Source: Anaerolineales bacterium
GTDB taxonomy: Bacteria; Chloroflexota; Anaerolineae; Anaerolineales; UBA11579
Direction of reading: 5' to 3'
Length of the DNA: 64,000 bases
Assembly (NCBI GenBank): GCA_019637755.1
Contig: JAHBVC010000001.1
Coordinates: 1,453,181 to 1,517,180, forward strand
Shown: in pieces, positions 27,401 to 34,739 of the stretch
Layout of the letters: every line of letters begins with the position of its first letter
How positions within the stretch are numbered: the stretch's first letter is position 1
Translations under genes and position numbers: made by a program
Notes under the pieces: model-generated
Databases searched by the model: none
Told to the model about the DNA's origin: nothing
Seen by the model: only the letters and a program-made list of their open reading frames with translations

Positions 27401-27522
27401 CCTTACAAGACCCAACACGAACCATCTAGCAAGGAAGATAGCTTACTGCTAGCGTTTCAATTTAAGCAACGAGAAAAGGTTGCCGAGTTATCTTCTAAGG
27501 ACAGAAAACAACGGGCTGGAAC

Positions 27523-28124
27523 TTGAATAAACCAGACAGCAAAGAAATTCTTGAAACTATAGTAGAAAAGTATAAGGTCCTGAAAAGTTTCGGTTTTTTT
27601 GAACATGTTGTTGCAGTGGGGCTTGGTTTCAGAACGACCAAAGAACAAGATGCAGAACATTTACAGTCGAGTTTGATTTACCAGAGGAAGAAAAGGTACA
27701 TGCCTTTGTTAACACCCTGCGAATTTTTACTCTTGAAAAACAACCTGTTTCAATACCCGCCCTCAGGCATTTACTTTTGGATGAATCGATTTCAAAAGAA
27801 TGGAGAAACAAAGCCAGCGACCTCAGAACTCAATATATTGCATTCATGGAAGCGTTTCCGCCTTCTGTTAACGATCTTTGGGGGAAGCGACCAACACATC
27901 AAGAAATATTTGACGTCATGGTATATGGCAATCTAGTGAAGGTGAACAACCCTGATAAGAGAGCTAAATATAAAGAGTGGACAAAAGATGATATTCGTAA
28001 GTTTGTACTTCAGCAGGAATTCACAAAGGTAATGCTGGCAATTTACGCATTTGTTGCCGATTTAGCAGATATTACAGTTCTAGAATTATCAAAGCCTAAC
28101 AAGGATTCAGCATCTCTTGCATAA
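27523..28124 (+). pseudogene. hypothetical gene split over two frames (frameshift near 27655-27665)
   Basis: ORF 27523.. reads well up to ..TKEQDAEH. The protein-like sequence then continues in the frame of ORF 27777..28124. That frame is open from 27603 (..FTVEFDLPEEEKVHAFVNTLRIF..) but has no start codon before 27777. Confidence 0.45.
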
Positions 28125-28357
28125 AGACCAAGGGCTTATGAGTTCGACCCACGCTCTAAAATTTTATGGGAAATCCAGTTTTTAGGAAAAATAGGGGGAA
28201 AATTGCGTTTATAGAGTATAAGGTTTCTATCTCATCCAAGCTGGTTGCACCCGCGTTGCACCCGAAATGGAGCTAGGAAAAGACGACCCTATTTTTAAGA
28301 CCGAGGTTGACCTATTTAAGTAACCTTTACAGTGAGGCGAGTTGAGCACTCCGATTT

Positions 28358-28549
28358 TCATCTTTCGACCGCCGCCGTTGCCTGGTCAAGTTCGGGAACG
28401 CCTCGGAACGCAATCTGATTATTTATCAAGGTGACGGGAGTAGAGAAGATATTATTCTCATTTGCTAATTGACGCCCCTCACGGCTATTGAGATCTCGCA
28501 AAACTTTCTGGATGAGTATATTGCGACGGAGTAATCTGGCTAATTTAGG
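28358..28549 (-). pseudogene. possible remnant of a small thioredoxin-fold (MTH895/glutaredoxin-like) gene
   Basis: A 63-codon open frame directly downstream of merA, with no ATG and no CxxC. It ends ..NNIFSTPVTLINNQIAFRGVPELDQ.., resembling the C-terminal half of redox-active disulfide proteins. Confidence 0.3.
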
Positions 28550-30233
28550 CTACGCAGCAAGAAAGCATAGCAACATCTTTTTCAAAAGCAATTGCTGCTA
28601 GTTTTAGCCCCTCAACCTGGGTTAAGTACGGGAATAGGGTATCTGTTAAGTCATCGACTTTGAGACCAAACTTGATCGCCAAGGTTGCGGATTGAATGAC
28701 CTCGCCCGCTTCAGCGGCAAGAATATGCGCGCCTAGAAGCCGGTTGGTTGTTTCATCTGCTACTAGCTTGATAAAACCGCGTGTATCGCGGGCTGCCTGC
28801 GCCCGAGCTACATACTCAAGACTGACAGTACTGGTTTTGACTTTGATTCCCTCAATTTTGGCCTGGGCCTCCGTCAATCCAACGGTTGCAATTTGTGGGT
28901 CGGTAAAAATAACGCCTGGTACAGTTGACAAATCAAGGGGCTTTTTTGTGTCCGTGAGAGCATTTTGGGCCGCTATCGATCCTCCGGCAGCGGCCACGTA
29001 TACAAATTCTGGATTAGTGGTCACATCACCGGTAGCATAAATCGCCGGATTGGAACTTTGCATGTATCTGTCTACAACGATTGCGCCGTTTTGCTCCAGC
29101 TCAACATCCCTGTTCTCCAACCCCATACCCTTTGTGTTGGCTTCTCGCCCAAGGGCCATCAGGATTTGATCGGCTTTGAATTCTCGCTCCTGCCCCAGCA
29201 CGCGGGCATGAACAGATCGAGTGTCGCCATCTTGACTCAAGCGCCCAACTTCAACACCAGTGATAACGCTGACCCCCTCTTGCTCCAAATAATCTTTTAT
29301 TGCCCGACCAATCTCGGGCTCATGGTCCGGCACCAGGCGAGTACTGCGTTGAAGGATCAAAACATTAACACCCAAGCGCGCCATTGTTTGCCCTAATTCC
29401 AGAGCCACAGCTCTCCCTCCCAAGATGATGAGTGACTTTGGCAACTGCTCTAATTCCATCAACGTAGTGCTATTCAGTGGTTCGGCTTCCTCAATCCCTG
29501 GAAAGTTGACCATACGGGGTTGCGCGCCTGTTGCGATCACGTATCGATTGGCCTTATAAAGCGTGTCTCCTACCTGCACCTTTCCCCCTTCGGTAAATTG
29601 GGCAAAGCCTTCAATGTAGGTGATGTTGGGATAGGCAGCCAAAACATCTGCATATCTGCTTTGGCGCATCTGCGAAATGAGTTCATCTTTTTGGGAGCGA
29701 ACAGTTTCCCAATCCAGATTGCCTTGCTGAGTATTAATGCCTTTGAAGGGATGGTGACCTGCGTTGTGCCAGGCTTCGGCAGCTCTAATCAGGGTCTTGG
29801 AAGGTACACAACCCCTATTGACGCAAGTTCCCCCAATAGTGCCATGGCCGACCATGCCGACTCGAAATCCTAGGTCTGCGCCCTTTATCGCTGCGGCAAA
29901 TCCGGCTGATCCAGCACCAATGACCAGCAAATCAAAGTTGTTTTCCCCGTGTCCGTTAGAAAAAGTGGAACCACTTTGTTCCACGTTGTCATCAACTATT
30001 GAAACGGTTTTAACCCTAGCGTGGTACCCGGCTCTCTCTACGGAAGCTGTTAGAGCTTCCTCGGACACTTCAGCTTCTGCGATAACAGTTGCCTTGCTCG
30101 ACTGCCAATTAGGTATATCTACAGACTTAACCCCTTCAACCTGACTGAGTGCCCTTTCGACATGGTTAGGACAAGTGGCACACGTCATGCCGCGAACATC
30201 TAAATCAAGCTTTTTATATTGCGCCATCTTCAC
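28545..30233 (-). CDS. merA: mercuric reductase with N-terminal HMA (NmerA) domain
   Basis: GMTCATC metal-binding domain, redox site GGTCVNRGCVPSK, C-terminus FPYLTQVEGLKLAA...LSCCVA. Confidence 0.95.
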   Translation of the reverse strand: MKMAQYKKLDLDVRGMTCATCPNHVERALSQVEGVKSVDIPNWQSSKATVIAEAEVSEEALTASVERAGYHARVKTVSIVDDNVEQSGSTFSNGHGENNFDLLVIGAGSAGFAAAIKGADLGFRVGMVGHGTIGGTCVNRGCVPSKTLIRAAEAWHNAGHHPFKGINTQQGNLDWETVRSQKDELISQMRQSRYADVLAAYPNITYIEGFAQFTEGGKVQVGDTLYKANRYVIATGAQPRMVNFPGIEEAEPLNSTTLMELEQLPKSLIILGGRAVALELGQTMARLGVNVLILQRSTRLVPDHEPEIGRAIKDYLEQEGVSVITGVEVGRLSQDGDTRSVHARVLGQEREFKADQILMALGREANTKGMGLENRDVELEQNGAIVVDRYMQSSNPAIYATGDVTTNPEFVYVAAAGGSIAAQNALTDTKKPLDLSTVPGVIFTDPQIATVGLTEAQAKIEGIKVKTSTVSLEYVARAQAARDTRGFIKLVADETTNRLLGAHILAAEAGEVIQSATLAIKFGLKVDDLTDTLFPYLTQVEGLKLAAIAFEKDVAMLSCCVA

Positions 30234-34563: not shown

Positions 34564-34576
34564 CGAAACTCCACGC
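34374..34576. repeat. two tandem repeat units, about 88 % identical apart from a 31-nt indel
   Basis: Unit 1 is 34374-34488 and unit 2 is 34495-34576. Both contain TCGGTACA..TCCGCGAAGG..CACATTCCCTCTCCAG..TAGGGAGTTCCTACT..GCCGAGTGACGAAA.TCCACGC. Confidence 0.85.
34402..34442. repeat. perfect 19-bp inverted repeat with TTT centre
   Basis: CTGGAGAGGGAATGTGCCC-TTT-GGGCACATTCCCTCTCCAG. Confidence 0.95.
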
Positions 34577-34621
34577 GCTACTCCCCATGGCCCACTATCC
34601 CGACCGGAATTTTAAAACCCC

Positions 34622-34649
34622 TTGACACAAGTTTCACAAACGCTATAAT
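34622..34649 (+). promoter_or_regulatory. near-consensus sigma70-type promoter reading toward the PPOX gene
   Basis: TTGACA (34622-34627), a 16-bp spacer, then TATAAT (34644-34649). Confidence 0.5.
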
Positions 34650-34739
34650 CTCACTTGACGAGCGTCCGGGTGCCCCCCTCACCTGGGCGCTTGTCATTTA
34701 ATCTAGTAATACCCTCCCTGCTGGTAGCATCTATAGCGT

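Follow-up and report, generated by a model that had tools for sequence, protein, structure and literature searches.

Streptococcal integrative mobilizable elements (IMEs) with a Rep_trans protein, such as IME_oriT and IMESag-rpsI, are small, consist of an integrase, the Rep_trans protein, a nick site in a hairpin loop and cargo, and possess no mating-pore genes (PMC5704250, PMC7563843). We analyzed a similarly built locus in a 64,000-nucleotide stretch (referred to throughout as the window) of contig JAHBVC010000001.1 from an Anaerolineales bacterium (assembly GCA_019637755.1), in which the genes rep and int and a mercuric reductase module lie next to a tRNA-Arg(CCT) gene. This locus is probably a discrete and recently active integrative element of 7.0 kb that enters tRNA 3' ends by means of a serine integrase and possesses a rolling-circle Rep. 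A first-pass annotation, made from the DNA letters alone, had called the host possibly Chloroflexota-like, and it does belong to this phylum (order Anaerolineales), whose members are abundant in sludge, sediments, and soils; to our knowledge, the mobile elements of the Chloroflexota are almost undescribed.

Modular exchange of tyrosine and serine integrases is common to the streptococcal IMEs and to the family of the window element. Unlike these IMEs, the window element resides in a Chloroflexota host, encodes a Rep that lacks a helix-turn-helix (HTH) domain and fails the MobT model, and has its attP site inside int. According to a review of IMEs, serine integrases direct these elements into protein genes, and tRNA 3' ends are listed as targets of tyrosine integrases only (PMC5704250); the window element, in contrast, sits at tRNA 3' ends. 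The pT181-family plasmids (RepC/RepD; structure 4CIJ) share with it the Rep_trans fold, a tyrosine in an R-x-Y-D/N-K context, a GC-rich hairpin beside rep (the nick site in the plasmids, a candidate one in the window element), and the absence of an HTH domain. It differs from them in its chromosomal integration through an integrase of its own, in the low identity (at most 27%) of its Rep to the Rep proteins in PLSDB, and in a hairpin loop that reads TACTAG and not CTAA.

Actinomycete integrative and conjugative elements (AICEs), such as pSAM2 and those of Mycobacterium with serine recombinases in tRNA-Leu, have the same rep-xis-int order at one end of a tRNA-integrated element that, once excised, replicates by the rolling-circle mode (PMC3218068). 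The Mycobacterium AICEs are a rare precedent for serine recombinases that target tRNA genes; this type of integration has been called rare, with phiRSM1 and eight of these AICEs cited (PMC3218068). The resemblance to AICEs is architectural only, because RepSA of pSAM2 is an HUH-type protein and not a Rep_trans protein. The host belongs to another phylum, and neither the FtsK/SpoIIIE-like Tra protein nor the RepSA, RepAM or Prim-Pol proteins by which AICEs are recognized were found in the element.

Two further systems resemble the integration module. Integrases of the A118/LI group use the same 25-bp attP and 20-bp attB half-sites, with an outer motif shifted by 5 bp, and possess catalytic and recombinase domains as well (PMC3783163); unlike them, the window integrase has no detectable cysteine zinc ribbon, its attB is the end of a tRNA gene, and its attP lies inside the integrase reading frame. 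The SSV-type tyrosine integrases of archaea likewise have their recombination site within the integrase gene, which is split when the element integrates at a tRNA gene (PMC7253208). These enzymes belong to an unrelated family and another domain of life, and in the window element only the last 41 codons are detached, while the catalytic core remains whole in the integrated copy. We found no description of a rep-int element family of this sort in the literature, and the earlier view that the family is not a described one stands in this respect. The kind of element is known, namely a small integrative mobilizable or replicative element; it is set apart by its phylum, by a tRNA-mimicking attP in a serine integrase gene, and by a minimal backbone of rep, a candidate recombination directionality factor (RDF) gene, and int.

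Limits, target sites, and recent spread of the element

The GC content (400-nt windows) drops abruptly from 0.57-0.67 (about 0.62) upstream of tRNA-Arg(CCT) to 0.39-0.47 over positions 27400-28800, as had been noted in the first-pass annotation. It continues at 0.41-0.53 (28800-31800) and 0.55-0.58 (31800-34600) before it returns to 0.59-0.71 past 34800, and 27400-34600 is the sole tract in the window that behaves in this way. The island had originally been placed at 27403-34739 (about 7.3 kb). Its right limit falls at 34396-34398, about 340 bp earlier, which leaves about 7.0 kb. The element occupies 27399-34396 (6,998 bp from dyad centre to dyad centre), with the 6-bp repeat GGGGCA at both flanks (Table 1). 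All left junctions read GGGGCA followed by CCTTACAAGACCCAACACGAACC, and all right junctions end in GGTTCGGTACAAGTCCGCGAAGGGGCA, beyond which hairpins specific to each host begin. The crossover lies within 27395-27400, the last six bases of the tRNA gene.

Several metagenome contigs encode the exact Rep protein as well, and so does locus L005 of CP075527.1, an Anaerolineales genome of 2.25 Mb. The window and L005 align over 27364-34398 with 99.8% identity, and the element body differs at 4 positions in 7 kb. In L005 the element adjoins tRNA-Glu(TTC) between Peptidase_S26 and Peptidase_M3 genes, with flanks unlike those of the window, and the integration targets observed are thus tRNA-Arg(CCT) in the window and tRNA-Glu(TTC) elsewhere. 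The metagenome-assembled genome (MAG) DTUCFX4 contains the last 1,003 bp of the element with 100% identity to the window, followed by 9.7 kb of syntenic host flank that is only 75.5% identical. Since the element end is identical while the syntenic flank has diverged, the sequences show a recent horizontal transfer between clearly different hosts, and they contradict purely vertical descent with host-like divergence. None of the outcomes that the first-pass annotation had listed as refuting its reading was observed, and that reading is supported.

An empty crotonase-tRNA-Arg site, of the type proposed earlier, is present on JGI contig L020, where an identical tRNA gene in the same crotonase-tRNA-Arg arrangement runs straight into the host sequence TACGCAGCGGCTG. 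In L008 and L001, TACGCAGCGGCTG stands to the right of the element, and L020 therefore represents the unoccupied site; the tRNA of the window is intact after the insertion. The empty site was found with a DNA pattern from the right end, and an exact look-up of the PNPOx-like flank protein, aimed at empty sites, returned no record. The integration features by which an IME is recognized are all present: the element has its own integration module and defined ends, an unoccupied site is known, and copies sit at more than one place. Of the mobilization features, a candidate nic hairpin and Rep are present.

DTUCFX4 (Anaerolineales, JAJTXV01; L010, L011, L013, L016, L018) possesses four diverged rep-int copies (100, 93, 90, and 87% nucleotide identity), each located at a contig end, so that the element family is multi-copy and assembly-breaking. 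One of these copies has a host flank in common with L005.

Table 1. Positions in the window of the element, its parts, and the genes at its flanks.
Feature	Position	Strand	Evidence or remark
Enoyl-CoA hydratase (crotonase), left flank gene	26143-27234		Pfam
tRNA-Arg(CCT), integration target	27327-27402	+	ARAGORN; Rfam tRNA 58.7 bits
attL	27379-27423	+	B half-site 27379-27398 and P' half-site 27399-27423; core GGGGCA 27395-27400
Detached int 3' end, 41 codons plus stop	27401-27526	+	PYKTQHEPSSKEDSLLLAFQFKQREKVAELSSKDRKQRAGT, then stop; in frame with P arm across attP
Low-GC (about 0.40-0.45) variable cargo	27424-28516		Open reading frames (ORFs) 27523-27936 and 27777-28124; absent from L001
merA, mercuric reductase with N-terminal HMA domain	28545-30233	-	TIGR02053, 555.7 bits (cut-off 454.45); Pfam HMA, Pyr_redox_2, Pyr_redox_dim
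MerR-family metal-responsive regulator	30230-30682	-	Pfam MerR_1, MerR, MerR-DNA-bind; 4-nt overlap with merA
71-aa ORF	30947-31162	+	In variable spacer 30720-31496; called as gene in other assemblies; region not common to L001
Long GC-rich palindrome, 72 nt	31494-31565		Start of conserved backbone; kept in L001 and L010; within the fold with z = -5.55
Candidate nick site (double-strand origin/oriT), hairpin CCCCCC-GATACTAGCA-GGGGGG	31606-31627	+	34 nt upstream of rep
rep, Rep_trans-family rolling-circle initiator	31661-32614	+	PF02486, E 2e-20, 73.7 bits (cut-off 29.6)
56-aa ORF between rep and int	32592-32762	+	Called in all assemblies; 87-100% conserved in variants
int, large serine recombinase, 535-aa core	32794-34398 (ORF runs on to 34563 in host DNA)	+	Pfam Resolvase and Recombinase
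attR	34372-34416	+	P half-site 34372-34396 (GGTTCG, 15 nt, GGGG) and host B' half-site; core GGGGCA 34393-34398
PNPOx-family protein, right flank gene	34740-35090		Pfam

The DNA between the right limit and the PNPOx-like gene (34399-34739) is host DNA; within it lie the hairpin from downstream of the tRNA, a relic copy of the att site, and the PNPOx-like gene's promoter. The relic, detected by a repeat search, is a degenerate second copy of the final 26 nt of the element at 34496-34521 (+ strand), outside the present element, and is probably the scar of an earlier insertion. Similar copies of the last ~26 nt (GGTTCGGTACACATCCGCGA, then GGGGCA after one variable position), each with a hairpin behind it, are found in L008, L010, and even the empty site L020, about 95 bp past the end of the tRNA or element, and look like scars of earlier insertions or pseudo-att sites; the relic att units escaped detection by Tandem Repeats Finder. 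The same flank contains an 88-89-bp direct repeat (34425-34488 and 34514-34576) that includes half of a perfect 20-bp hairpin (34401-34443) and whose second copy appears to be the first one with a stretch deleted between two GGCA repeats. A perfect TTGACA-16-TATAAT promoter followed by a hairpin with a 17-bp stem and the core GGGTGCCCCCCTCACC occupies 34622-34696. This core recurs with other stem sequences downstream of two more integrase-bearing elements (L016, about 1175; L014, about 11613), and the hairpin may be a conserved leader or small RNA beside tRNA-Arg. The Rfam scan matched the tRNA and nothing else.

The serine integrase and a reading frame that crosses its att sites

Int matches PF00239 (E 2e-21) and PF07508 (E 3e-9), as well as PHROG integrases (E 6e-66); of the three recombinase profiles suggested for checking it, PF13408 was not matched. 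Because the gene runs through the att site at the element end, and encodes at least 535 amino acids, the enzyme is the large serine recombinase of this element, as first assigned, and not an unrelated invertase or resolvase. It is at most 24% identical to phage integrases. Among NCBIfam models, XisF of the cyanobacterial fdxN element comes closest, with 105.8 bits where the cut-off is 375.

The att sites are delimited by comparison of the copies. Compared with L005, the copy at tRNA-Glu, the window becomes identical at 27395; compared with the diverged L001, its homology ends precisely at 27423, the final base of the 25-bp P' arm. At the other side, all copies and relatives end at attR and then diverge into host-specific sequence; the P arm is kept even in recombinases that are 66-67% identical. 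In attL, the B half-site consists of the tRNA T-loop motif GGTTCG, 10 nt, and GGGG, and the P' half-site ends in CGAACC. When the right and left ends are joined, the inferred attP reads GGTTCGGTACAAGTCCGCGAAGGGG/CACCTTACAAGACCCAACACGAACC (the slash marks the joint) and forms a 50-bp imperfect dyad inside the 3' end of int, with 25-bp arms, 14 of 25 symmetric positions, and outer hexamers (GGTTCG/CGAACC) that are a perfect mirror. Only 134 of 20,000 shuffled sequences equalled its dyad score. GGTTCG is placed, as judged in silico, 25 bp from the centre in the P arm and 20 bp from it in attB, where it is the tRNA T-loop. In the model for A118/LI integrases, the attP half-site measures 25 bp and the motif of the zinc-ribbon domain lies 5 bp nearer to the centre in attB (PMC3783163), and the att geometry fits that of a serine integrase.

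Once the element is integrated, the int frame runs through attR and takes its stop codon from host DNA, so that the product has 554, 574 or 589 amino acids depending on the flank. Read across attP instead, the frame continues for 41 codons into the left end of the element, which gives a reconstructed length of 576 amino acids. We compared the best 120 clusters of homologues, all at least 56% identical and from Chloroflexota where named. A nonapeptide xS-x5-G[AVS], encoded by the P arm, is present in 83 of the 113 clusters that could be anchored and is followed by short, unconserved tails (median 13 amino acids); a longer form with the conserved end motif FLxxLRF[ED]xRxKLxEL occurs in 17 of the 120. 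When a hidden Markov model (HMM) of the tail was run against 3,257 six-frame peptides from the window and three loci, its four best matches were the predicted left-end frame, including that of L001, whose left-end DNA is no longer alignable. Since attP lies inside the 3' end of int, integration would cut the conserved 41-aa C-terminal tail off the integrase and carry the tail codons to the opposite end of the element. We have moderate confidence, from these alignments, that full-length integrase could be produced only from the excised circle, an arrangement akin to the integration-split gene of the SSV-type archaeal tyrosine integrases (PMC7253208).

More tentatively, and with confidence that falls clearly short of even, we propose that the whole clade (at least 120 clusters, at least 56% identity) carries attP in the last codons of its own integrase genes. 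The 27-nt stretch that codes for the nonapeptide G-S-x5-G-A would imitate the tRNA from the T-loop to the acceptor end, and the variable P-arm codons (REGA, RLGA, HVGA, and others) would set the tRNA target. Removal of the tail upon integration would make the enzyme state-dependent, as a switch for directionality or stability, in a self-sufficient rep-RDF-int replicon that carries resistance and defence cargo.

Rep, its candidate origin, and possible routes of transfer

The first-pass assignment of Rep to the Rep_trans family was borne out by PF02486. We collected 91 homologues, nearly all from MAGs of Anaerolineales or other Chloroflexota, and Y175 (in RVYDK), R108, D110, D114, R182, and E184 are invariant among 28 of them. 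A profile built from these 28 sequences aligned, from residue 6 of the 317-aa protein onward, with 4CIJ, the structure of a Geobacillus Rep (E 2.8e-16), and placed Y175 on the tyrosine of its FYEK motif; a search of the PDB with the single sequence found nothing, and the profile was needed. Tyr175, in its R-x-Y-[DN]-K context, is the predicted catalytic residue, presumably equivalent to the catalytic tyrosine of RepD and RepC. The protein is at most 27% identical to plasmid and phage proteins in PLSDB and INPHARED.

A hairpin-dense noncoding region had been described before rep, and the 286 nt that precede the gene do fold much better than shuffled sequences (z = -5.55). Within it lies a GC-rich hairpin with the loop TACTAG. 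The hairpin pattern occurs a single time in the window, where 0.03 occurrences would be expected. It is likewise found once in each of 14 loci, which extend to 47% Rep identity, and always lies just upstream of rep; two of its stem pairs show compensatory changes. The nic sites of Rep_trans and MOBT proteins are placed at CT'AA in the loop of a GC-rich hairpin (PMC9371924), and by analogy the hairpin is a likely candidate for the nick site. The long palindrome farther upstream (Table 1) is a candidate Rep-binding site or single-strand origin. Three independent metagenome contigs, L002, L008, and L009, begin at the equivalent of 31543, its centre, which coincides with the junction between cargo and backbone.

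Among relatives of Rep at 36-81% identity, the gene order is rep, a small gene, and a tyrosine integrase gene, beside tRNA-Leu, tRNA-Gln, tRNA-Arg(TCG) or tRNA-Met. The small gene usually encodes an HTH_17 excisionase. In the serine-integrase branch, integrase and small gene have been replaced jointly; the 56-aa ORF of the window element holds the place of the excisionase gene, and since both were swapped together we propose it, by its position, as a candidate RDF. Homology between the 56-aa ORF and the HTH_17 excisionase was considered and rejected, as none was found.

The element would thus operate as follows. The serine integrase would insert the circle at a tRNA 3' end and leave the tRNA intact, guided by an attP P arm that copies the GGTTCG T-loop motif and the GGGGCA acceptor end of the tRNA gene with 5 extra bases between them. 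Excision, possibly aided by the product of the 56-aa ORF, would restore an attB that reads tRNA...CCTGGGGCAT(T/A)AC... and yield a circle with the attP junction ...CCGCGAAGGGGCACCTTACAAGACCC... (also written ...GTCCGCGAAGGGGCACCTTACAAGACCCAAC...). Rep would nick the TACTAG loop 34 nt upstream of its gene and start rolling-circle replication of the circle, and MerR-MerA would confer mercury reduction. Since the element has no transfer genes of its own, the nicked strand could feed a helper conjugation system.

Several observations weigh against parts of this scheme. No PF13408 (Zn_ribbon_recom) match was obtained in the recombinase at E values up to 0.01, and in the translation, residues of about 300-535 show no cysteines where a zinc ribbon should be; the fold may exist as a Cys-less variant. 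The dyad is centred on GC, a palindromic dinucleotide that would fix no orientation in known serine integrases, and the B' half-sites are poorly conserved between sites. The hairpin loop reads CTAG and not the canonical CTAA. For the detached tail, the E values of the HMM are weak (0.03-0.12), and the long-form homologue L028 lies in a 10.7-kb contig without any sign of circularity; it was considered as a free circle with an intact int and rejected for want of a terminal overlap and a tRNA, so that the long form is no proof of free circles. The junction of an excised circle, for which the first-pass annotation had suggested a search, was not found in JGI metagenome contigs with the attP pattern GTCCGCGAAGGGGCAN{0,3}TTACAAGAYCCAACACG, and a shorter attP pattern had no match in IMG/VR. 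The 7-kb Logan contigs L006 and L007 were considered as circles and rejected; they start in a tRNA-Glu-like 3' end, finish 23 bp into the host flank, and are integrated forms.

In a different reading, the element is purely mobilizable: Rep would serve mainly as a MOBT-like relaxase at a hairpin oriT, export would use the coupling protein and type IV secretion system (T4SS) of a co-resident element, and replication would be incidental. Rep_trans proteins had been named at the outset as proposed relaxases, and relatives in this family are the relaxases of Tn916, ICEBs1, ICESt3, and the streptococcal IMEs, with the same hairpin-loop type of nic site. Such a reading would accommodate the spread between hosts that are 75% identical. 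Helpers may exist, because related Chloroflexota serine integrases sit with ATPases resembling type IV coupling proteins in L015 and L028. However, Rep scores 28.6 bits against the MobT model NF041493, whose cut-off is 600; it has no N-terminal HTH (none was matched in Pfam, and the fold alignment starts at residue 6), although this domain is needed for MOBT nicking (PMC9371924); and its profile aligns with a plasmid Rep structure. By sequence comparison, Rep resembles plasmid-type initiators more closely than it does MOBT relaxases. A TcpA/FtsK-like coupling protein is absent from the window element and from 10 family members examined, and the parts of the window around the element yielded no conjugation genes. 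We therefore regard this reading as rather unlikely, though it is the strongest of the alternatives to an element with a replicative Rep. In the two loci named above, L015 (4901-6343) and L028 (843-2318), integrases that are 57-67% identical to that of the window lie on larger elements whose coupling-protein ATPases are TrwB/TraG-like; L028 encodes, in addition, an AEP primase, a LexA-like repressor, and HicA. Both are candidate conjugative elements of the Chloroflexota and possible helpers.

A satellite of a filamentous, inovirus-like phage, with Rep in the role of RstA in CTXphi/RS1 and a single-stranded circle packaged by a helper phage, is very improbable. RstA-type Rep proteins do belong to Rep_trans, the filamentous phage phiRSM enters a tRNA-Ser 3' end by a serine recombinase (PMC3218068), and several tiny ORFs in a row adjoin the 47% identical Rep homologue of L026. 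Among 2.9 million IMG/VR contigs, however, neither Rep nor the integrase has a relative, the INPHARED matches reach only about 23-27%, the L026 ORFs match no structural protein, and the element has neither candidates for coat, Zot, and packaging signal nor a PHROG structural match. In L026 (3509-9338), the Rep homologue has the same TACTAG hairpin and no integrase nearby, and its gene is placed after eleven mostly tiny ORFs and before a ParB-like gene. L026 could be a plasmid-like or phage-like relative; as an inovirus-like one it was rejected, given the missing structural-protein match.

That the locus is an immobile, decaying remnant of a prophage or of an integrative and conjugative element, or an island inserted by a tyrosine integrase in trans next to an unrelated resolvase or invertase, is largely refuted: tRNA 3' ends are classic tyrosine-integrase targets, Rep relatives sit with such enzymes, and a relic att copy lies nearby, but near-identical complete copies occupy two different tRNA genes and are found in divergent hosts, the element ends inside the gene of a recombinase with a Recombinase domain, at least 535 residues, and integrase matches in PHROG (6e-66), and the att geometry, in which a long direct repeat of the tRNA 3' end is missing, is of the serine type.

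Cargo modules and implications

The merR-merA module of the first-pass annotation is present, although its regulator half calls for a qualification. MerA exceeds the equivalog cut-off (Table 1) and is at most 45% identical to any MerA of the plasmids in PLSDB. The regulator belongs to the MerR family, but it stays below every NCBIfam equivalog cut-off (MerR, 83.9 vs. 150.85; CadR-PbrR, 93.5 vs. 151.45), and it is therefore a MerR-family sensor of uncertain metal. Translations and Pfam searches of the element ORFs revealed neither merT nor merP. Consistent with the first-pass annotation, scans with Pfam, NCBIfam, and PHROG profiles found no coupling protein, T4SS, capsid or morphogenesis gene in the element.

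The diverged relative L001 shows the rep-int pair with other cargo, for which a search had been suggested, and supports the earlier idea that the element is a mosaic of modules. It has rep-int (87% nucleotide identity) and merR-merA (83%) in common with the window, and lacks counterparts of 27424-28516 and 30720-31497. Its mer operon is larger, and where the window has the low-GC module at 27424-28516, L001 carries genes for MerE and a redoxin, among others. A 47-aa ORF directly downstream of merA in the window (28358-28501, - strand) may be the remnant of a longer mer operon, because L001 has genes for a 137-aa protein, an 80-aa protein, and a 190-aa redoxin at the same place. Within the low-GC module, a 1-nt indel at 27655 distinguishes L005, which has one 200-aa ORF, from the window and L006/L007, which have two overlapping ORFs. 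The low-GC ORFs and the 71-aa, 56-aa, and 47-aa ORFs matched nothing in Pfam, NCBIfam or PHROGs. In the relatives with tyrosine integrases, cargo ranges from none (L021) to restriction-modification genes together with a ThsB-TIR protein (L023) or a CBASS-like gene (L024).

For the Chloroflexota, the element is a concrete vehicle for the recent movement of mercury resistance between hosts that are only about 75% identical at the nucleotide level in the flanking DNA, and in its relatives this three-gene backbone bears genes for restriction-modification as well as Thoeris-like TIR and CBASS-like genes. Practical interest attaches to an integrase whose attB is a feature universal to tRNAs, whose attP is both small and predictable from sequence, and for which two tRNA targets have been seen. 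If confirmed, such integration-dependent splitting of int, described previously for the SSV-type tyrosine integrases of archaea, would add a regulatory arrangement new to the serine integrases.

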